A stretch of DNA of 64,000 nucleotides, taken from the sequence record PQ478073.1; one strand, written 5' to 3'. Shown piece by piece: positions 1,151-35,128 of the stretch. Both the position numbers and the translations under genes were made by a program. Under the pieces are notes generated by a model. The model was not told the DNA's origin, did no database searches, and saw nothing but the letters and a program-made list of their open reading frames with translations. Every line of letters begins with the position of its first letter. Within the stretch, counting starts at the first letter, position 1. Source of the DNA: a phage.

Positions 1151-1401
1151 CATTTATGATTGTTGGATTACTATCAATATTAGTATTATTTTTTATAACA
1201 GTAATGTTTGTTATTGATGATAATGACATTTCTCAACGAAACTATGAAGTGCGTTTTTCTGCACAAAATAATAAGTACTATATTGTAAACTGTATACACC
1301 GTAGTGAGAAAAGGGTAACAAGTAGATTTGGATTTACCATTTATTATAAAGACCGAGTAGAAGCTGACATGATTTGTCAGAAGCTTAATACTGTAGAATA
1401 A
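1147..1401 (+). CDS. small membrane protein
   Basis: N-terminal hydrophobic helix; ATGA overlap with upstream stop. Confidence 0.45.
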   Translation: MTFMIVGLLSILVLFFITVMFVIDDNDISQRNYEVRFSAQNNKYYIVNCIHRSEKRVTSRFGFTIYYKDRVEADMICQKLNTVE

Positions 1402-1428
1402 AAAAAGGAGCCAGAAGGCTCCTTTTTT
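1401..1428. terminator. bidirectional intrinsic terminator between convergent genes
   Basis: A-run, GGAGCC/GGCTCC stem with AGAA loop, T-run. Confidence 0.6.
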
Positions 1429-1429
1429 G

Positions 1430-1807
1430 TTAACCAGGGATGTTACAATAATACAAATCCCAAGGGTGATATTTCATTTCTCCAGTACTCAATTTAATTT
1501 TATGAAACTGGAATGATTCGGCAAATGCACTATCATCAATCTTAATACAAAAAGTATTTTTTGCTAAAGTTGGTGCAATCTCTAGTGCAGTTTTAGTTGC
1601 ATCTAATCTGATTTTATCTTTATCAAAACTTGTTATAGTTACAAAACGATAAACATTAAAATCAGTGTCGATAAGATCGTAAACACAACTAGAACGTTGA
1701 TTAAAGATGTTCAAGTTATATTTCAATTCACCGTTTATATTAGCGGCGGTTACACAAAAGCCGCCGATATTGAATGGTAATTTACCTTGTGCTGCTATAG
1801 CTTTCAT
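1430..1807 (-). CDS. hypothetical protein (lone minus-strand gene)
   Basis: 125-aa ORF; AAGAGGA RBS upstream on minus strand; convergent terminator at its 3' end. Confidence 0.5.
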   Translation of the reverse strand: MKAIAAQGKLPFNIGGFCVTAANINGELKYNLNIFNQRSSCVYDLIDTDFNVYRFVTITSFDKDKIRLDATKTALEIAPTLAKNTFCIKIDDSAFAESFQFHKIKLSTGEMKYHPWDLYYCNIPG

Positions 1808-1959
1808 ATTTTATTTCCTCTTATTAATAAACAACTACTTTTACAGATTGTTGTACCTTTTATATTTACACCGTCAACTAAATATCCACCTAAAGTGAAT
1901 GGAAATTGGTCTTGTCCTGCGATTGGTTCCCCCATTAAGGGCACTCCTTATAAAAAAGC

Positions 1960-1989
1960 TTTACATTTGGTATGGGTTTGTGATAGAAT
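1960..1989 (+). promoter_or_regulatory. putative sigma70-type promoter (TTTACA N18 TGaTAGAAT)
   Basis: -35/-10-like hexamers upstream of 2117 gene. Confidence 0.3.
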
Positions 1990-2116
1990 CTTCACAGTGA
2001 TTGTACTAAGGGGATTATCAGATGAGGGAAATTTGAGTTAAGTACAGAAAAAGTTTGACTTAAGTGTTTAAGTACTATATTATTTATATCTTCCTAACCA
2101 AAATTAAGGATTTGTT

Positions 2117-2725
2117 ATGAAAAGACTATGGCTTGAGGTAGTACAAGCAGTAATGCTTCTGATGTTGATAAATTTTCCAGCCAGTGCTGGTGTTGAAAGT
2201 AAAAATGTGATAAAGTACAATCCTGAAACACGTAATGTATATTTCATCTCAGATATTACGGATGGGTCACTAAAGCGTATGATGGAGTTGTATGATAAAG
2301 AACACTATGATACCATTACCATCACATCGCCAGGTGGTGATTTTGATGCTGGGATTAAAATGGCAAACTTCGTTAGAGACAATGGTATAAATTTAATTGT
2401 TTCTAGGTATTGCAACTCAGCATGTACTGTGGTATTCTTCAGTGTAGCTTTTGAAAAGCGATACATGATAAATCGCTCAGTACTGGGACTTCATAACATT
2501 TCTATTAAAAGTAATGTTAAAGACGGTGATAATTCTTTTGTATCAGTTAGGCAGCTATCAACTTTTACTGAAGAAATGGCAACTAAAGTAGGTTTTCTAT
2601 TTACACTATATTCTGCAAATGGAATTCCACCAGACGTTCTATATAAAGTTAGCCGTTCGCGTGGTGAAGATGTTGTAATATTAACAAAACCAGAACTGGT
2701 TTTTTACGGTTCAGTCAAACAATAA
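2117..2725 (+). CDS. secreted ClpP/SppA-like (S14/S49) serine peptidase-like protein
   Basis: N-terminal signal peptide; TITSPGGDFDAG and NSAC motifs resembling the ClpP family SPGG and catalytic Ser regions. Confidence 0.45.
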   Translation: MKRLWLEVVQAVMLLMLINFPASAGVESKNVIKYNPETRNVYFISDITDGSLKRMMELYDKEHYDTITITSPGGDFDAGIKMANFVRDNGINLIVSRYCNSACTVVFFSVAFEKRYMINRSVLGLHNISIKSNVKDGDNSFVSVRQLSTFTEEMATKVGFLFTLYSANGIPPDVLYKVSRSRGEDVVILTKPELVFYGSVKQ

Positions 2726-2795
2726 AAATAATTAAAATAACAGGATGATTATGATGTACTTCCTTTGTTATTAATTATATTGAGATTATATAACT

Positions 2796-3056
2796 ATGAC
2801 AAACATCCAAAATTTGACATCTATTATTTTTTATGCTACAGTAGTGATGTATATTACTGTACTTTTCCTAACAGTTTTCATTTACAAAGATTACAAAAAT
2901 GGCTTTATTGATAACACAACAATGAAGTTCAATTCAAAGTTTGAAGCAATAATTTATTATGTTCTGGCAACATCATATTTGGTGTGTCTAATGTTATTAG
3001 GTACATTGATTTATATTTTATATACAACTTTATTTGCAATTGGAGCTATTTTATGA
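2796..3056 (+). CDS. small membrane protein (2 predicted TM helices)
   Basis: hydrophobic segments; stop overlaps next start (ATGA). Confidence 0.4.
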   Translation: MTNIQNLTSIIFYATVVMYITVLFLTVFIYKDYKNGFIDNTTMKFNSKFEAIIYYVLATSYLVCLMLLGTLIYILYTTLFAIGAIL

Positions 3057-3649
3057 CATGTATCATTGCACACACTGATGGTGTAACTTCTTTTATTGCA
3101 GGGGACAAACTGGGAAGTAACGGGTTCACAAAGTCCGTTCAAACTGAGCCTAAAGTATTTGAGAAAGAATTCATTAAAATCAATGATGATGCTGGTTTGA
3201 CCCGTACAAAAGAAATTATGGCGATTGGTTACACCACATCATTCCGTATGGGTCAACTTCTTACTTACAGTTTGAATCTACCACAGCAAGATGCAAATGA
3301 GACGTTTCCACAGTACTTAGTACTGAAAGTTATTCCTATTATTCGTCAAATGTTCAAAGAGGAATGGGGTTCTCGTGATCCTTCACAAGAAGTAGGTGGT
3401 GGACAGTTCATCATTCTTCACAATCATACAATTTATGAAGTTCAAGAAGATTTTTCAGTTCTTCAACCGAAAACACGAATCACCGCCGTAGGTAGCGGAA
3501 CATATCATGCTATTGCAGCAATGCAAGCATATATTGAAGTTGAAAATGAATCAAAAGTGCCACTACATGAACGCATCAAATCAATTTTTAAAATTGTCAG
3601 TGATAATGTAACTAGTGTAAGTGCCGAGTTTGATGTTTTAAAGTATTAA
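3053..3649 (+). CDS. Ntn-hydrolase, proteasome/HslV-like peptidase
   Basis: Met-Thr N-terminus (MTCIIAHTDG) and AVGSGTYHAIAAMQAY resembling HslV IAIGSGGPYAQAAARA; start re-placed at in-frame ATG 3053. Confidence 0.55.
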   Translation: MTCIIAHTDGVTSFIAGDKLGSNGFTKSVQTEPKVFEKEFIKINDDAGLTRTKEIMAIGYTTSFRMGQLLTYSLNLPQQDANETFPQYLVLKVIPIIRQMFKEEWGSRDPSQEVGGGQFIILHNHTIYEVQEDFSVLQPKTRITAVGSGTYHAIAAMQAYIEVENESKVPLHERIKSIFKIVSDNVTSVSAEFDVLKY

Positions 3650-3667
3650 AATTATAAGAGAGAATAG

Positions 3668-3862
3668 ATGATGGCATACACAATTTATGAATGGGTTTTG
3701 AGTTTTTTTATAGTTTTTTCTATTGTTGTAATTTATAACAATGCTAAATGCTTATACAGGGACTTGAAATCCAATGGTTATCACAAAGATAATAATTTTA
3801 TGTATGCCTATCATATTGGAATAATTCTGTTATTATCAATATATTTAATTGGTTTTTCATAA
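3668..3862 (+). CDS. small membrane protein
   Basis: two hydrophobic helices. Confidence 0.4.
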   Translation: MMAYTIYEWVLSFFIVFSIVVIYNNAKCLYRDLKSNGYHKDNNFMYAYHIGIILLLSIYLIGFS

Positions 3863-3871
3863 GGATTGAAT

Positions 3872-4624
3872 ATGATATCAGAAAAATTTATAAGTAATGA
3901 AGGTAAAAAAAGATTACTGATTATATCTGGTGCAGGACTTTCTGTTGAAAGTGGTATGGAACCTTTTCGATTTGATGATGGTTTGTGGGATACATTTAAA
4001 ATCAATGATGTATGTAACATTGCTAGTTTAACTACGAAATATCACGTTGTTCATTCCTTCTATAATACATTACGTGTAAAATTGGGACAATGCGAACCCA
4101 ATGCAATGCATTATTTTATAAAATCGTTAGAAGATCAATATGGTGATTGCTTCCTTCATATGACTTCTAACATGGATGATCTTTATACTCGTATCGGTGG
4201 TCATGAGCTTAAACTTCATGGAAACTTGTGCGAAGTTATTGAAAATTATAGTATCAATTCCGATGATTATAATGTTATTAACTGCGGATACGAACCATAC
4301 ATACCAAAACATGATGTTTTTGCTAAACCAAATGTAGTAATGATTGGAGAATATCATCGTTATGTTGATGGTATTCGCTTACCAATTTACGAAGAACGAA
4401 ATAATGTGTTGAAATCTCTTAATGAAAATGATACAGTTATTGTAATTGGTAGTAGCGATACAGTACTAGTATGGTCGAGATTAGCAGCAGCATTACCATG
4501 TTATAGTGTTAATGTTAACATTCGTAAAAATGATAATGATTTTTTGTTTAATGAAAAAGTTATCAAGCCAGCAACCAAAGCAATACCACATCTAGAGACT
4601 ATAATTAAGGAACGTATGAAATGA
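3872..4624 (+). CDS. Sir2 (sirtuin) family NAD-dependent protein
   Basis: ISGAGLSVESGMEPFR, TSNMDDL, LKLHGNL (catalytic His), PNVVMIGE motifs; ATG 3872 with AAGGA RBS. Confidence 0.8.
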   Translation: MISEKFISNEGKKRLLIISGAGLSVESGMEPFRFDDGLWDTFKINDVCNIASLTTKYHVVHSFYNTLRVKLGQCEPNAMHYFIKSLEDQYGDCFLHMTSNMDDLYTRIGGHELKLHGNLCEVIENYSINSDDYNVINCGYEPYIPKHDVFAKPNVVMIGEYHRYVDGIRLPIYEERNNVLKSLNENDTVIVIGSSDTVLVWSRLAAALPCYSVNVNIRKNDNDFLFNEKVIKPATKAIPHLETIIKERMK

Positions 4625-5172
4625 GTGTTAAAGAAGTTCCCTTTGGTGAATATGGCTCACGTGCAAATTTTGTATTTTGTTATTTCTTTGCAAGAAAATG
4701 TAACCCTTACAAAAACTATGAGTTGAATGATATACCAGAAGTAAATTTAGTTTTACTACAATTACGATGGGATGGTCTTCTTGGTGGATGTGGTGGAACC
4801 GTAGAAAGTACTGATATCTCACTAGAAGATGCGTTGCGTCGTGAAGTTCAAGAAGAAATGGATTACAATATTTTTGTTTCCCATCTTCGACCACTCAAAA
4901 CTTTTGAAATTTACCCAGGTGCAAACAGTCATAGTTTTAGCTATGAAGTAAGCTATGACGAGTTGAAACACATTAGAGATGGATACACTAATGCTAAACA
5001 TGCGAGTGCTGAAGTTGCTGGTGTAAATTTATGTCATATTTCTCGTTATTCTAAGGGACAAAATCGAGAAGCGGGATATAATAATCTTATGACACAGAAC
5101 TTCATTGGTACAGCAAAACAAGAATTGGAGTATCTGGTTCAAAAAGAAAACTTACTAATTAGTTATCTATAG
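4621..5172 (+). CDS. Nudix-like hydrolase
   Basis: approximate Nudix box GGTVE...LRREVQEEM; ATGA coupling to Sir2 gene. Confidence 0.5.
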   Translation: MSVKEVPFGEYGSRANFVFCYFFARKCNPYKNYELNDIPEVNLVLLQLRWDGLLGGCGGTVESTDISLEDALRREVQEEMDYNIFVSHLRPLKTFEIYPGANSHSFSYEVSYDELKHIRDGYTNAKHASAEVAGVNLCHISRYSKGQNREAGYNNLMTQNFIGTAKQELEYLVQKENLLISYL

Positions 5173-5181
5173 GAGTTTAAC

Positions 5182-5502
5182 ATGTCTTACGCAATGTTTT
5201 TGGATGATATTCGTGATGCAAATCTATATTATCCAAACCAAGATATGGTGGTATGTCGTGACTTTAAAAGTGCATGTGAATATGTTATTGAAAATGGAAT
5301 TCCAGCATTTGTATCATTCGACCATGACTTGGGTGATGTGAGCGAAGACGAAAAGACTGGATATTCTTTTGCTAAGTTTCTTATTGATTATATGTTTGAT
5401 AATAATATTAAAGAACCGTTTGAGTACTTTGTTCACAGTAGTAATCCTGTTGGTAAAATTAATATTGAAACATACTTAAACAATGGATTTAACGCATTAT
5501 GA
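5182..5502 (+). CDS. small receiver-like (REC-like) domain protein, function unknown
   Basis: MFLDDIRD ... SFDHDLG acidic-pocket-like motifs; AGGAG RBS. Confidence 0.4.
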   Translation: MSYAMFLDDIRDANLYYPNQDMVVCRDFKSACEYVIENGIPAFVSFDHDLGDVSEDEKTGYSFAKFLIDYMFDNNIKEPFEYFVHSSNPVGKINIETYLNNGFNAL

Positions 5503-5801
5503 TTCAAACACACATCAAAAGTCTTATTTGTACTGTTCTGTTAGGTGCAGGAGTTCTTTGGTTCGGACAGTATCACGAGAACACTAAGCGTACCAACATT
5601 CACTACAATACCGCAGAAGTTGTTAGTTTAGGACAATGTAGCGAGTCCAAATGTTCATTCATGTATAAAACCCAAAGTGGTGAAGTACGTAATGGACTAT
5701 CAAGAGAACCAGTTTCAATTGGTCAACTTGTTTACCAGGAGTGCTGGGAAGAAAAGGTTCGAGGTTCACGTTGCTATGTTGAATACGAACCAAATATGTA
5801 A
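5499..5801 (+). CDS. hypothetical protein with N-terminal signal/TM segment
   Basis: ATGA-coupled ORF, hydrophobic N-terminus. Confidence 0.45.
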   Translation: MIQTHIKSLICTVLLGAGVLWFGQYHENTKRTNIHYNTAEVVSLGQCSESKCSFMYKTQSGEVRNGLSREPVSIGQLVYQECWEEKVRGSRCYVEYEPNM

Positions 5802-5861
5802 TAATCCGAGTCAATAACATTAGTCGAGTACAAGGATGTACTCATAACTCAAGGATGTTTT

Positions 5862-7301
5862 ATGAAAAAATATACAATTGACACAAACGTACTACTATCT
5901 GACCCTAATGCATCTATTGCTTTTGATGGTGCTGCAATCATTCTACCATTTACAGTACTGGAAGAATTAGATTCGATTAAGAGTCGTAATGTAGATGTTT
6001 CACGCGATGCTCGTGTTGCTATTCGTAACATTGAAGCAATTATTGCAGATGCATCACATGACGAGATTAGTAGTACTGGTGTTAATATTGCTGATGTTCA
6101 TACCAATATGAATCCTGATAGCAAATTGTTTGTTATTACAAACGAAGAAGCTGAGGCACTAATTCGTACTAAAGGTACAGAAGAGAAAGTTCAAACCCTT
6201 CTCAAAAGTACTGTACCTGATGATAAAATCATTCTGGTAGCTTTAGCAACAGAATCAGTACTGGTAACTCGTGATATCAACATGCGTATCAAAGCACTAA
6301 GTTATGGTGTCGAGGTACAAGATTATCGCCATGATATTGTTATTGGTGATAGTGATTTGATTCACATTGGTCAACACCATCTGGAAATCAATTTTTGGGA
6401 AGTATACAGCAACTTAACCAATACTAATATTCAATCCGAACAAGTTGGTCGTCGTTTGTATCATTACATTTCTAAAAGCTTGATTGAACATCTGCTTCCA
6501 CAAAATCTATGCATCGGTGATTATCTATATGATGATGCTGACGTATTATTTGTGTACGAAGGACAATCAGCAATTGAGGAAGATGATGGAACACTAACAC
6601 CAGAAGATATTTTGGTATTCCAAGACATTGGACAATCAGTGGCTTTACGTGCTAAAGTATGGGATATTAAAGCAAAGAATATCCAACAAGCACTCGCCAT
6701 CAACAGTATTCTCGATCCTGATGTACATCTAACAGTACTACTAGGTTCTGCTGGTACTGGTAAAACACTAATTACAATTGCTACTGCATTAGAATTAGTA
6801 CTGGAAAAACGTAAATACGACCGAATCATCTTCTCTAAAACTCAAGACTCACAGTTTGAAGATATTGGTTTCTTGCCAGGTTCAGAAGCAGAAAAAGTGA
6901 TTCCATTCTGTGGAGCCGCGATTGATGCGTTAGAGTTTCTTCATAAAGATGATGCAAACCCACAAGGTAGTATTGAAGAGATTATGAAACGTAATGTTAT
7001 TCAATTTAAAGCACTAAACTTTGTACGTGGACGTTCATTCACCAACACTATTCTAGTAGTTGATGAATTCCAAAACATTACACCTGCACAAGCAAAAACC
7101 ATCTTGACACGAGCAGGGTTAAACTGTAAAGTAGTAATTATGGGTAACTTGAGTCAGATTGACAGTAAGTTTATTAGTCCTGTTAACAGTGGTTTGACAT
7201 ATGTAACTGAGAAGTTTAAAGACTGGGCAGGTTGTCGTGTCATCGAACTAGAAGGTGTTGTTCGTTCACCACTGGCTGAATTTGCTGAAGAAAATATGTA
7301 A
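5862..7301 (+). CDS. phoH: PhoH-like ATPase with N-terminal PIN domain
   Basis: PIN-like N-terminus (IDTNVLL), Walker A GSAGTGKT, Walker B LVVDEFQN. Confidence 0.85.
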   Translation: MKKYTIDTNVLLSDPNASIAFDGAAIILPFTVLEELDSIKSRNVDVSRDARVAIRNIEAIIADASHDEISSTGVNIADVHTNMNPDSKLFVITNEEAEALIRTKGTEEKVQTLLKSTVPDDKIILVALATESVLVTRDINMRIKALSYGVEVQDYRHDIVIGDSDLIHIGQHHLEINFWEVYSNLTNTNIQSEQVGRRLYHYISKSLIEHLLPQNLCIGDYLYDDADVLFVYEGQSAIEEDDGTLTPEDILVFQDIGQSVALRAKVWDIKAKNIQQALAINSILDPDVHLTVLLGSAGTGKTLITIATALELVLEKRKYDRIIFSKTQDSQFEDIGFLPGSEAEKVIPFCGAAIDALEFLHKDDANPQGSIEEIMKRNVIQFKALNFVRGRSFTNTILVVDEFQNITPAQAKTILTRAGLNCKVVIMGNLSQIDSKFISPVNSGLTYVTEKFKDWAGCRVIELEGVVRSPLAEFAEENM

Positions 7302-34401: not shown

Positions 34402-34755
34402 ATGAGTGATTACCGCGTAACATCTGGACTAATGGCACGTCTTATTGAAGCAGTTCCTGAAGATGATTATGAAGCTATTTCAGATCGTCTTTTTGACGCA
34501 GATTCTAAACTCCATATTACATATGATGGTGCATTGATTTACAGTACTGATATTGATATGTCTAGTTATGAATTTGAGATTTCTTTTGGTAACAAACTAA
34601 CTACTGAAGAATTCGCTCGAAAATGTGAGCGTGAAGGATTCTGTATTGATATTAGTTCAGTTCAGCCATATACATCACTGTGGTATGATGGTGCTGATAG
34701 TCCAATGTCTACTACATCTTTACAGGATTTTCTAAATGCAAATCAAAAAGATTAA
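34402..34755 (+). CDS. hypothetical protein
   Basis: ATG 34402 with AGAGG RBS. Confidence 0.45.
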   Translation: MSDYRVTSGLMARLIEAVPEDDYEAISDRLFDADSKLHITYDGALIYSTDIDMSSYEFEISFGNKLTTEEFARKCEREGFCIDISSVQPYTSLWYDGADSPMSTTSLQDFLNANQKD

Positions 34756-34804
34756 ATTCCACCAGCATTGTTCTATACATGAATGTGATGATTGTGGTAT
34801 ACAA

Positions 34805-35128
34805 ATGAGTGACATTTATACAGTTTCCTGTAAAGGTTTCAAATTCACTCACGGTGAACCTGCTTATTGTTATGGTACAGAAGAAGGTGATATCGAAGTA
34901 GTACTGAAAGAATTGTTCCAGTACTTGCAAAGTGTAGGTCATGATGTTACAATACCCACATATTATGAAGATGATTATGATGCACATGTAGAAGAAAATA
35001 CATATTATAATCAATTCGTTTATGGTAATGGTTTTATCACATATCTACATGAGAATGGTATTGAGGTAAAAACTAAGTACACCAGTGATGATTATGATGA
35101 TGATAATTCTATGGAGATTGAAGATTGA
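34805..35128 (+). CDS. hypothetical acidic protein (start uncertain, may be 34736)
   Basis: two in-frame ATG candidates. Confidence 0.4.
   Translation: MSDIYTVSCKGFKFTHGEPAYCYGTEEGDIEVVLKELFQYLQSVGHDVTIPTYYEDDYDAHVEENTYYNQFVYGNGFITYLHENGIEVKTKYTSDDYDDDNSMEIED

Follow-up and report, generated by a model that had tools for sequence, protein, structure and literature searches.

HslV (ClpQ, MEROPS T1B), the peptidase of the bacterial HslVU protease and the closest described system for one of the two predicted enzymes treated here, has an Ntn alpha-beta-beta-alpha fold. Its nucleophile Thr1 stands immediately behind the initiator Met, with no propeptide in between, and is accompanied by Asp17, Lys33, an oxyanion Gly (Gly45/47) and a GSG element (Ser124/129). 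Proteins of the family (MEROPS T1), whose nucleophile is Thr or Ser, form 6- or 7-fold double rings, and HslV has an AAA+ activator. BPH is an orphan ring-forming Thr hydrolase for which an ATPase partner is not known, and it is not phage-borne. Closer in distribution are the phage-associated proteasome homologues AAH, PPH and CPH, which were surveyed in 2021 and whose function was given there as unknown (Fuchs, Alva & Lupas 2021, PMC8665760). These include compact group-I proteins that, like the one described below, have no propeptide and are found in many Caudoviricetes and, via prophages, in bacteria; the AAH group, represented by WP_035979212 and about 180 aa long, is known from many phages and, among bacteria, from alpha-proteobacteria, Actinobacteria and Firmicutes (PMC8665760). 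Our literature search turned up no study of what HslV-like proteins do in phages, and no biochemical or genetic work on either of the enzymes treated here or on a phage homologue of them.

The other predicted enzyme resembles ClpP (MEROPS S14). This cytoplasmic tetradecamer, for which ClpX or ClpA acts as unfoldase, combines a ClpP/crotonase-type fold with an SPGG motif, a catalytic Ser and His and a third triad residue (Asp171), and carries axial loops at its N-terminus. NfeD/STOPP and SppA (MEROPS S49, the type that includes lambda gpC) are likewise ClpP-fold serine peptidases and, as is predicted for the phage protein, work at or beyond the membrane; they employ a Ser-Lys dyad. In NfeD/STOPP the ClpP-like domain is N-terminal and precedes TM segments and an OB-fold domain, and the gene lies beside one for a stomatin/PHB protein.

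The window analysed here is a 64,000-nt stretch of phage DNA (PQ478073.1) that shares 99.5% identity with Escherichia phage 121Q, a jumbo coliphage, and its positions 2117-3649 correspond to the 121Q genes gp473, gp474 and gp475, all on the plus strand, with gp473 in a neighbourhood of nucleotide and NAD metabolism genes. All three genes are already in the public record and none is new: the 2014 annotation of 121Q in GenBank names gp473 'protease (ClpP-like)', the GenBank label of gp475 is 'protease (ClpYQ-like)' or 'peptidase HslV family', and on the genes themselves we have nothing beyond that annotation, the PHROGs families and the 2021 survey of proteasome homologues. What is added is residue-level confirmation, from alignments and predicted structures, that both putative active sites are intact; a predicted placement of the two enzymes in separate compartments; the finding that they form no conserved module; a CxSxC and export signature for the gp473 family; and a picture of one phage with four proteolysis-related genes. 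We think it likely that gp473, gp474 and gp475 are adjacent, functionally independent accessory genes with no part in the virion, two of them encoding enzymes that would work as set out below. The features on which the argument draws are as follows.

2055-2083, plus strand: candidate sigma-70-like promoter, TTGACT-17 nt-TATTAT, 34 nt 5' of the gp473 start codon
2117-2725, plus strand: gp473, 202 aa, predicted exported ClpP-fold Ser/His hydrolase
2117-2188, plus strand: gp473 aa 1-24, signal peptide predicted from N-terminal features
2327-2341, plus strand: gp473 aa 71-75, motif SPGGD (SPGG is aa 71-74)
2411-2425, plus strand: gp473 C99-N-S101-A-C103, the CxSxC around the predicted nucleophile
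2492-2494, plus strand: gp473 His126, aligned with the catalytic His of ClpP
2796-3056, plus strand: gp474, 86 aa, small polytopic membrane protein by hydropathy
3053-3649, plus strand: gp475, 198 aa from its ATG, predicted HslV/proteasome-like N-terminal-Thr hydrolase
3056-3058, plus strand: gp475 Thr2 (Thr1 after loss of Met), predicted nucleophile
3104-3106, plus strand: gp475 Asp18 (Asp17 of the mature protein), invariant, aligned with HslV Asp17
3152-3154, plus strand: gp475 Lys34 (Lys33 of the mature protein), invariant, aligned with HslV Lys33
3164-3223, plus strand: lineage-specific beta-hairpin insertion in gp475 (about aa 38-57), from the alignment and the AF2 model
3227-3229, plus strand: gp475 Gly59, invariant
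3491-3499, plus strand: gp475 G147-S148-G149, aligned with the GSG of HslV
3668-3862, plus strand: unannotated 64-aa ORF, two hydrophobic segments, located between the gp475 and Sir2 genes

It is established that the three ORFs of the original prediction are real plus-strand genes at the coordinates given there, and all three show purifying selection or deep conservation. The gp473 ATG has an AAGGA ribosome-binding site 5' of it, and comparison with the ortholog in phage phAPEC6 gives a dN/dS of 0.10. For gp475 the choice of start matters, and the program-made ORF that contains it opens at an upstream GTG at 2984, which would add a 23-aa propeptide. This start was rejected in favour of the ATG at 3053 because the latter has a Shine-Dalgarno sequence (GGAG, 8 nt upstream), overlaps the gp474 stop codon as ATGA, and yields the MT(C) N-terminus with which every homologue begins.

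The N-terminus of gp473 has the features of a canonical Sec signal: K2/R3, then 13 hydrophobic residues that form the core, Pro21, and Ala-Ser-Ala24 ahead of a Gly. Signal-like N-termini were found in 42 of 46 distant relatives, lipobox-like ones in 10, and the presence of export signals across the family is well established. Judged by sequence, then, gp473 is very probably exported, and it belongs to an uncharacterised family in which nearly every member bears a signal peptide or lipobox. The family is large, with some 2,700 representative clusters matched at E < 1e-3, many of its bacterial members are lipoproteins, and the names of the clusters among the relatives go no further than 'hypothetical protein', 'lipoprotein' or 'peptidase'. 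A Shewanella copy sits in a mobile island and a Kangiella copy amid housekeeping genes, and in these bacterial contexts no recurring partner gene was seen nearby.

Searches of the PDB with gp473 or gp475 as single sequences gave noise or marginal matches only, so that profiles were required. With its family profile gp473 matches ClpP structures at E 7.5e-7, with Ser101 and His126 falling on the catalytic Ser and His, and Foldseek searches with an AF2 model of moderate confidence (pLDDT 66.8) returned ClpP for all top PDB matches (prob 1.0, TM 0.52-0.62). The match to PHROG 26024 'protease' is strong (9e-119), and that to Pfam CLP_protease (PF00574) reaches 16.7 bits, under the gathering cut-off of 20.2. 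Among the 46 relatives S71, G73, G74, S101 and H126 never vary, and conservation reaches at least 90% at C99 and C103, the sole cysteines of gp473 and a pair that brackets Ser101. Thus both the model and the alignments place gp473 in a ClpP-type fold with Ser and His in register, and with the same 25-residue Ser-His spacing as in ClpP. It departs from ClpP in having a predicted cleavable signal peptide in place of the axial loops, the CxSxC around the nucleophile, the sub-threshold Pfam score, and the lack of a conserved triad Asp: no invariant Asp was present in the 46 relatives, and positions 184/185, matched by eye to the ClpP Asp region, vary as E/S/N/D and D/K/R/Q/T in 12 close relatives.

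The original prediction had described gp473 as a signal-peptide-bearing, ClpP- or SppA-like peptidase with SPGG and Ser motifs; the signal peptide, the SPGG, the conserved Ser101 and the ClpP-family fold all stand, and SppA falls away. An SppA/S49 identity was rejected on the lack of an invariant Lys, and hence of a Ser-Lys dyad, where the gp473 family has an invariant His instead; Peptidase_S49 was absent from the Pfam and NCBIfam results. NfeD/STOPP was rejected as well, with the NfeD1b_N domain matching gp473 only at E 0.15 and 12 bits, where the cut-off is 40, even though 10 of the 46 relatives match it at E 0.01 or better and the family profile matches the PDB structure of 1510-N at about 1e-4. 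Unlike NfeD/STOPP proteins, gp473 stops after the ClpP-like domain, without an OB-fold, a TM C-terminal part or a stomatin neighbour (the adjacent gp474 has no PHB domain). A cytoplasmic role as a ClpP served by ClpX or ClpA was also set aside, given the Sec signal or lipobox in gp473 and in 42 of its 46 relatives; its predicted export to the periplasm would put it beyond the reach of these unfoldases. The picture that we favour is one in which the Sec signal peptide is cleaved after Ala-Ser-Ala24 and the periplasmic protein folds into a ClpP-type alpha/beta domain, with Ser101 and His126 as the catalytic pair, flanked probably by a C99-C103 disulfide, and cuts periplasmic or envelope proteins or peptides; both the proteolysis and its substrates we infer.

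[quoted passage not shown] The top 50 Foldseek matches in the PDB came exclusively from HslV, BPH and proteasome beta subunits (prob 1.0, TM up to 0.74), BPH giving the best scores (0.69-0.74 for 5ovt/5ovs) and HslV the stronger profile similarity (E 7.5e-9 against 6e-4 for BPH). In the HslV profile match Thr1, Asp17, Lys33 and GSG are aligned, hhalign with E. coli HslV gives a probability of 96.6% and E 6.9e-10, and the alignment of the catalytic residues holds on both E. coli and T. maritima HslV with HMMER and hhalign. M1, T2, D18, K34, G59 and G147 are the same in all 56 aligned relatives, and at least 90% of these retain G149. We can therefore assign gp475 with confidence, on its predicted structure, to the HslV/proteasome-like alpha-beta-beta-alpha Ntn fold, and the original prediction of an Ntn hydrolase with Thr straight after Met1 is upheld; for gp473 and gp475 alike, structure prediction gave a peptidase fold with catalytic residues in place. 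The Cys of MTC was considered as a nucleophile of the class-II amidotransferase type and dismissed, since the fold is that of HslV and the spacing of Asp17 and Lys33 suits a Thr in first position.

That said, gp475 is not simply HslV. Identity to HslV is only 16-24%; the family has a near-invariant Cys after Thr1 and a TTSFRMGQLL signature; in the Asteriusvirus lineage an additional hairpin separates the Lys33 strand from the Gly strand; and no HslU lies next to gp475 or was detected as phage-encoded. The protein matches PHROG 1040 'peptidase HslV family' at 1e-23 and no Pfam family at E <= 1, PF00227 (Proteasome) included, and it scores 19.2 bits against NF003964 (cut-off 137) and 18.3 against TIGR03692 (cut-off 157.75), the HslV equivalogs of NCBIfam. 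Because these curated thresholds are not reached, gp475 is better regarded as a separate subfamily than as an HslV ortholog.

Homologues of gp475 number 345 proteins, and the family was seen in 197 phage records, among them T5-like Epseptimavirus and Aeromonas, Vibrio and Geobacillus phages, as well as phages of Firmicutes, Patescibacteria and further hosts. IMG/VR holds more than 585 matches, and bacterial genomes 387, mostly in Azospirillum, Polyangiaceae and Paenibacillus, with other alpha-proteobacteria, other Firmicutes and an Actinoplanes MAG as further carriers. On its length and on the distribution of its carriers and their hosts, gp475 is most likely a member of the AAH group; PPH was rejected, as proteins of that group are about 140 aa long and lack helix H2, one of the four that gp475 has. 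The branch of the proteasome/HslV family to which it would belong is large and found mainly in phages. Hydropathy detected no hydrophobic segment in gp475, which is predicted to be cytoplasmic.

Methionine aminopeptidase strips the initiator Met before a small second residue, as it does in E. coli HslV. The host enzyme would in the same way remove Met1 of gp475, a step suggested by the small residue at position 2, and expose Thr1, which is predicted to act as nucleophile with Asp17 and Lys33 and with the backbone elements contributed by Gly and GSG. By analogy with HslV and BPH, gp475 probably forms stacked rings whose substrates are proteins or peptides of the cytoplasm, and it may either act alone, as BPH and Anbu do, or borrow a host unfoldase.

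How such a ring would be supplied with substrates is where the alternatives diverge. No HslU-like sequence was found in the roughly 175 kb of 121Q searched, about half of the genome (E > 2), and in the whole collection only 4 Escherichia phage records matched HslU, compared with at least 29 Escherichia records of Asteriusvirus type, from which HslU appears to be absent in Asteriusvirus. The phage does encode a genuine ClpP, gp464 (141 bits), which is a gene distinct from gp473, and an annotated ClpS adaptor, gp48, so that the proteolysis-related genes of 121Q are four: ClpP, ClpS, the HslV-like gp475 and the exported ClpP-like gp473. This repertoire suggests a phage that plugs into host unfoldases generally, and together with the end-to-end alignment of gp475 with E. 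coli HslV and the presence of HslU in the host but not detectably in the phage, it speaks for gp475 rings that dock on host HslU to form a chimeric HslUV, redirecting ATP-dependent proteolysis of the host during infection. We nevertheless hold this to be unlikely in view of the low identity to HslV and of the occurrence of the gp475 family in phages whose hosts have a different HslU or none. HslV Lys28, the residue that contacts the HslU tail, aligns with a variable position of the family, a weak argument against the use of host HslU that does not establish autonomous activity. Somewhat harder still to credit is the idea that gp475 uses its proteasome-like site otherwise, as a ligase or transpeptidase like connectase or to cleave a single defined substrate, perhaps in monomeric form. 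The hairpin of about 20 residues in the Asteriusvirus lineage, which follows the Lys33 strand and precedes the Gly strand and which our reading of the alignment places at the S3/S4 site, would fit such a role, as would the lack of a nearby AAA+ partner gene in any lineage, but most family members are without the insertion, the nearest structures (HslV and BPH) are ring-forming proteases, and all four ring-contact helices are predicted.

In the original prediction the three genes formed a cluster around a protease pair, and the fullest version of that idea is a single module in which the membrane protein tethers or connects the two enzymes and host envelope or defence proteins are the target. 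The genes are indeed adjacent and co-oriented, with the gp474 stop overlapping the gp475 start, and the arrangement is retained in about 22 close relatives; moreover, a different 93-aa ORF with two TM segments lies upstream of the gp475 ortholog in a contig of 66% identity (L009), and T5-like phages have a DUF3307 membrane protein upstream of their HslV-like gene. Yet of the two enzymes only gp473 bears a signal peptide, and from this difference they are predicted to work in separate compartments, the periplasm and the cytoplasm. Nor does the linkage extend far: no gp473 relative lies within 6 kb of the gp475 relative at 79 of 80 viral loci from IMG/VR, 121Q being the sole exception, and in phage EJP2 5 kb of NAD-salvage genes are inserted between the two orthologs. 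T5-like phages have the HslV-like gene only, and RaK2-type Klebsiella phages are among the gp473 matches. A TM protein was encoded upstream at 6 of 58 loci of gp475 relatives, no more often than the background of 13-15%. When the neighbours at the 80 loci were clustered, no AAA+ ATPase, ClpP-like gene or membrane protein recurred; what did recur was lineage-specific, namely portal and terminase genes in the small phages and, in 9 jumbo-type contigs, genes for an HD_4 hydrolase and an NAD-dependent ligase. It is thus established that the two genes are unlinked across their families, their association being confined to close Asteriusvirus relatives; the claim of a protease pair does not hold, and we regard a single module as very improbable. 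The ATGA overlap of gp474 and gp475 could still mark a functional link inside the Asteriusvirus lineage that statistics across families would not see. Least probable of all, to the point of being barely tenable, is a role of gp473 as a ClpP-related protease of capsid (prohead) maturation. Two related phage records do call the ortholog 'head maturation protease', and gp473, like 27 of its 46 relatives, weakly matches the NCBIfam model Clp_rel_HeadMat (NF045542), but its 20.1 bits stand against a cut-off of 120, members throughout the family share the signal peptide, bacterial lipoproteins included, bacterial homologues occur in non-phage contexts, and the gene lies outside the head module. That module has its own protease in phAPEC6, the T4 gp21-type gp227c, whose gene lies next to those for the scaffold, the major head protein and the portal. 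MS identified 62 virion proteins in phAPEC6, and the orthologs of gp473 and gp475 (gp346c and gp345c) are not among them, a firm observation although negative evidence by nature; the original statement that the enzymes are not obviously part of virion maturation is borne out.

Of the two enzymes, only gp473 could plausibly act on proteins of the host's envelope or defences. A more ambitious joint reading, which we offer as possible but doubtful, would make gp473 a representative of a widespread family of exported ClpP-fold hydrolases with a Cys-x-Ser-x-Cys disulfide that cuts a host envelope protein, while gp475, gp464 and gp48 rewire proteolysis in the cytoplasm. If this were true, a disulfide of a kind specific to the periplasm would staple the nucleophile elbow of gp473, and cleavage in the periplasm could serve receptor removal or superinfection exclusion, control the timing of lysis or disable a defence located in the envelope. 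A periplasmic protease secreted by a phage would be an unusual route of host manipulation. The gp475 family, for its part, is found in hundreds of phage genomes, and these include the readily manipulated T5-like coliphages.

The gene between the two enzymes, gp474, is 93% identical to its phAPEC6 counterpart with a dN/dS of 0.086 and matched no Pfam or PHROG family. Its hydrophobic stretches (aa 6-32 and 49-86) agree with the two TM segments originally proposed and may hold a third helix; it would encode a small protein of the membrane, its translation coupled to that of gp475. The candidate promoter at 2055-2083 sits in the divergent intergenic gap between gp472, on the minus strand, and gp473 and agrees with the consensus at 10 of 12 positions, which is weak evidence because such matches are barely more frequent than in shuffled sequence (29 found, 21.7 expected). 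Downstream of gp475, the 64-aa ORF at 3668-3862 is missing from the annotations of 121Q and phAPEC6; it has a purine-rich ribosome-binding site upstream, is 98% identical in phAPEC6 and weakly matches PHROG 18969 'membrane protein', and it probably represents a genuine gene for a small membrane protein, next to gp475.

The region at 2117-3649 coincides exactly with genes 473, 474 and 475 of Escherichia phage 121Q, a jumbo myovirus (genus Asteriusvirus) with a genome of 348.5 kb, to which positions 1400-5200 of the window are 99.5% identical; about 20 relatives, including PBECO4, phAPEC6, G17 and Sharanji, are 92-94% identical over the same interval. All three open reading frames of the original prediction were found in the ORF listing, and with their immediate surroundings they read as follows:

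34 nt upstream of gp473: weakly supported candidate for a sigma-70-like promoter, TTGACT-17-TATTAT
2117-2725, plus strand: gp473, 202 aa, with an AAGGA ribosome-binding site
2796-3056, plus strand: gp474, 86 aa, hydrophobic at aa 6-32 and 49-86
3053-3649, plus strand: gp475, ATG at 3053 with GGAG 8 nt upstream
3668-3862, plus strand: candidate for a missed small membrane-protein gene between gp475 and Sir2, 64 aa, two hydrophobic segments, purine-rich ribosome-binding site

The dN/dS values against phAPEC6 are low (0.10 for gp473 and 0.086 for gp474), and these are therefore real genes. The phAPEC6 counterpart of gp474 (positions 2813-3073 of the stretch from that phage) shares 93% amino acid identity, yet carries no annotation in its record. 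The gp475 start overlaps the gp474 stop (ATGA); an upstream GTG offered by the ORF listing was rejected as the start in view of the GGAG, this overlap and the MT(C) beginning of all homologues. The 2014 GenBank record of 121Q already names 473 a “protease (ClpP-like)” and 475 a “protease (ClpYQ-like)”, and RefSeq labels the latter “peptidase HslV family”, so what had been read from the sequence of these two genes was correct, but at that level nothing was new. What remains of interest is how phage proteasome homologues, and an exported CxSxC ClpP-fold family, work in biology.

That gp475 is an Ntn hydrolase, as predicted, is clearly borne out by both its fold and its catalytic residues. Pfam returns no match for gp475 and the NCBIfam HslV models score just 18-19 bits against cut-offs of 137-158; PHROG 1040, named “peptidase HslV family”, gives a match of 1e-23. 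The confident AlphaFold2 model (pLDDT 92.6, pTM 0.88) has as its top PDB matches HslV from six species and the beta-proteobacterial proteasome homologue BPH (probability 1.0, TM up to 0.74); proteasome beta subunits come next. Of the 345 homologues, 56 were aligned, and among these M1, T2, D18, K34, G59, F64, Q68, G147 and V189 are invariant, and C3, G17, G149 and a TTSFRMGQLL block nearly so. The family profile reaches E-values down to 7.5e-9 against HslV chains and aligns with E. coli HslV over its full length (hhalign probability 96.6%), placing T2, D18, K34 and the G-S-G of gp475 on Thr1, Asp17, Lys33 and Gly-Ser124-Gly, the residues by which Fuchs et al. define a proteasome-like catalytic centre (PMC8665760). 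In Asteriusvirus members, a hairpin of about 20 residues is inserted between the Lys33 and Gly strands; it is missing from other members. Hydropathy reveals no hydrophobic segment in gp475, from which a cytoplasmic location should follow. In the mechanism we propose, Met1 would be cut off to expose Thr1 as a nucleophile acting with Asp17 and Lys33, and the protein would assemble into HslV/BPH-like rings that hydrolyse cytoplasmic proteins or peptides, unaided or with the help of a host unfoldase.

The phage partner expected of an HslV appears to be missing. In a search of the window and a further 100 kb of 121Q, E. coli HslU finds no match (E > 2). Of the Escherichia phage records in the whole collection, just 4 match HslU, whereas Asteriusvirus-type Escherichia records number at least 29; the genus therefore appears to lack HslU. 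HslV genes without HslU have also been reported in another jumbo-phage paper, and at the viral loci examined an unfoldase gene never adjoins the HslV-like gene. The family extends to 197 phage records, including about 150 T5-like Epseptimavirus genomes, which would make an experimentally tractable system, as well as phages of Aeromonas, Vibrio, Pseudoalteromonas, Geobacillus and Moorella, under annotations that run from “hypothetical” to “putative proteasome”. A single peptide pattern matches more than 585 IMG/VR contigs and also 387 bacterial genome loci, most of them from Azospirillum and other alpha-proteobacteria, Polyangiaceae, Paenibacillus and Patescibacteria. The phage-borne proteasome homologues PPH (about 140 aa), AAH and CPH were described by Fuchs, Alva and Lupas (2021; PMC8665760), who also pointed out their spread by phages; from its length and distribution, gp475 would fit the AAH group. 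No functional study of a phage member turned up in the literature searched. In Aeromonas phage 2L372D (positions 4001-5454 of its stretch), tandem proteasome-like genes gp210 (183 aa) and gp211 (294 aa, Pfam Proteasome 24.8 bits) hint at a hetero-oligomeric complex.

For gp473, the original prediction had left a choice between ClpP-like and SppA-like peptidases. Pfam CLP_protease scores 16.7 bits, under its 20.2 cut-off, PHROG 26024 (“protease”) is essentially the protein's own small family, and a word-indexed search yields only 14 close relatives. An exhaustive profile search, however, collects 2,714 representative clusters at E < 1e-3, and among 46 spread-out members S71, G73, G74, S101 and H126 are invariant, while C99 and C103, within a Y-C-x-S-x-C-A motif, reach 90% conservation or more. 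The profile matches ClpP structures at 7.5e-7 and the NfeD-type 1510-N protease more weakly (about 1e-4), with “ItSPGGdvdaG” in register with ClpP “INSPGGSVTAG” and S101 and H126 at the catalytic Ser and His; all top Foldseek matches of the AF2 model, itself of moderate confidence (pLDDT 66.8), are ClpP. SPGG, Ser and His are thus common to gp473 and ClpP, but gp473 lacks the conserved triad Asp: no Asp or Lys is invariant among the 46 members, so that the ClpP triad is incomplete and the Ser-Lys dyad of S49 (SppA) is missing, which tells against the SppA reading. The ClpP-like fold is joined, as predicted, to a classic Sec signal (K2, R3, hydrophobic residues 8-20, P21, A-S-A24 then G); 42 of the 46 members have signal-like N-termini, 10 of which resemble those of lipoproteins, and source records name several bacterial members “lipoprotein”. 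Gene neighbourhoods of the bacterial homologues are uninformative. The only cysteines of gp473 are the C99/C103 pair on either side of the nucleophile, which in an exported protein suggests a disulfide across the nucleophile elbow. After its predicted Sec export, signal peptide cleavage and oxidation, the Ser/His pair would hydrolyse a periplasmic or envelope substrate.

Whether these genes form a protease pair or cluster is a separate matter, and the evidence says that functionally they do not. The two enzymes are predicted in different compartments, and a gp473 relative lies within 6 kb of a gp475 relative at only 1 of 80 viral loci, 121Q itself, two weak matches elsewhere being ordinary ClpP-like genes. 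Upstream ORFs on the same strand that encode a TM segment are found at 6 of 58 loci, not above the 13-15% background, and in phage EJP2 the two orthologs are separated by 5 kb with NMNAT and NAMPT genes. Within Asteriusvirus, the ATGA coupling of gp474 and gp475 may be relevant. The HslV-like gene recurs in surroundings of early or middle genes for nucleotide metabolism and auxiliary functions (ThyA, DHFR, RNR, PhoH, NAD-dependent ligase, HD hydrolase); of the two peptidase genes it is the only one in T5-like phages, where it is next to thymidylate synthase and RNase H. In Salmonella phage 118970_sal2 (4549-5579 of its stretch) it comes after genes for thymidylate synthase and a DUF3307 membrane protein and before RNase H. 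In 9 IMG/VR jumbo-type contigs the gene before it encodes an HD_4 (SpoT-type HD) protein and mostly overlaps it by 4 nt, and in 9, largely the same, the gene after it encodes an NAD-dependent DNA ligase (these contigs include L026, L028, L030, L032, L034, L043, L069 and others); nearby are genes whose sequences, judged by eye, resemble PheRS-alpha, Thg1 and peptidyl-tRNA hydrolase.

The view that gp473 and gp475 do not serve virion maturation is supported. phAPEC6 encodes a T4 gp21-type “prohead core scaffold and protease” (gp227c) beside its scaffold, major head and portal genes, and the gp473 and gp475 orthologs, gp346c and gp345c, are missing from its list of 62 virion proteins by ESI-MS/MS, which is negative evidence; the list does contain gp347 (an Ig-domain protein; window 1430-1807, minus strand) and the PhoH protein gp341c. 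121Q holds four proteolysis-related genes: gp473, gp475, an annotated ClpS-like adaptor (gp48, at 34461-35006 of the 121Q stretch L089) and gp464 (at 2662-3357 of L001, another 121Q stretch, some 2 kb upstream of where the window begins). The last is a genuine ClpP (Pfam CLP_protease, 141 bits), labelled “head maturation protease” in RefSeq, and gp473 is thus not the phage's “real” ClpP.

Downstream, the 64-aa ORF at 3668-3862 is 98% identical in phAPEC6, annotated in neither phage and probably a missed small membrane-protein gene. Between 121Q and phAPEC6 (window 2117-4624), synonymous divergence falls from 0.40-0.58 in gp473 and gp474 to about 0.09 in this ORF and Sir2, whose protein is 100% identical, a drop that suggests a recombination boundary near position 3650. 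The cassette that follows directly (3872-7301, plus strand) encodes Sir2, a Nudt16-like Nudix hydrolase, a cREC_REC (cyclic-phosphate-processing receiver domain) protein, a small membrane protein and a 479-aa PhoH-like protein whose ortholog is a virion protein in phAPEC6. In EJP2, nicotinamide-nucleotide adenylyltransferase and nicotinamide phosphoribosyltransferase, both of NAD salvage, lie at 3929-7064 of its stretch, upstream of the Sir2/Nudix cassette of that phage.
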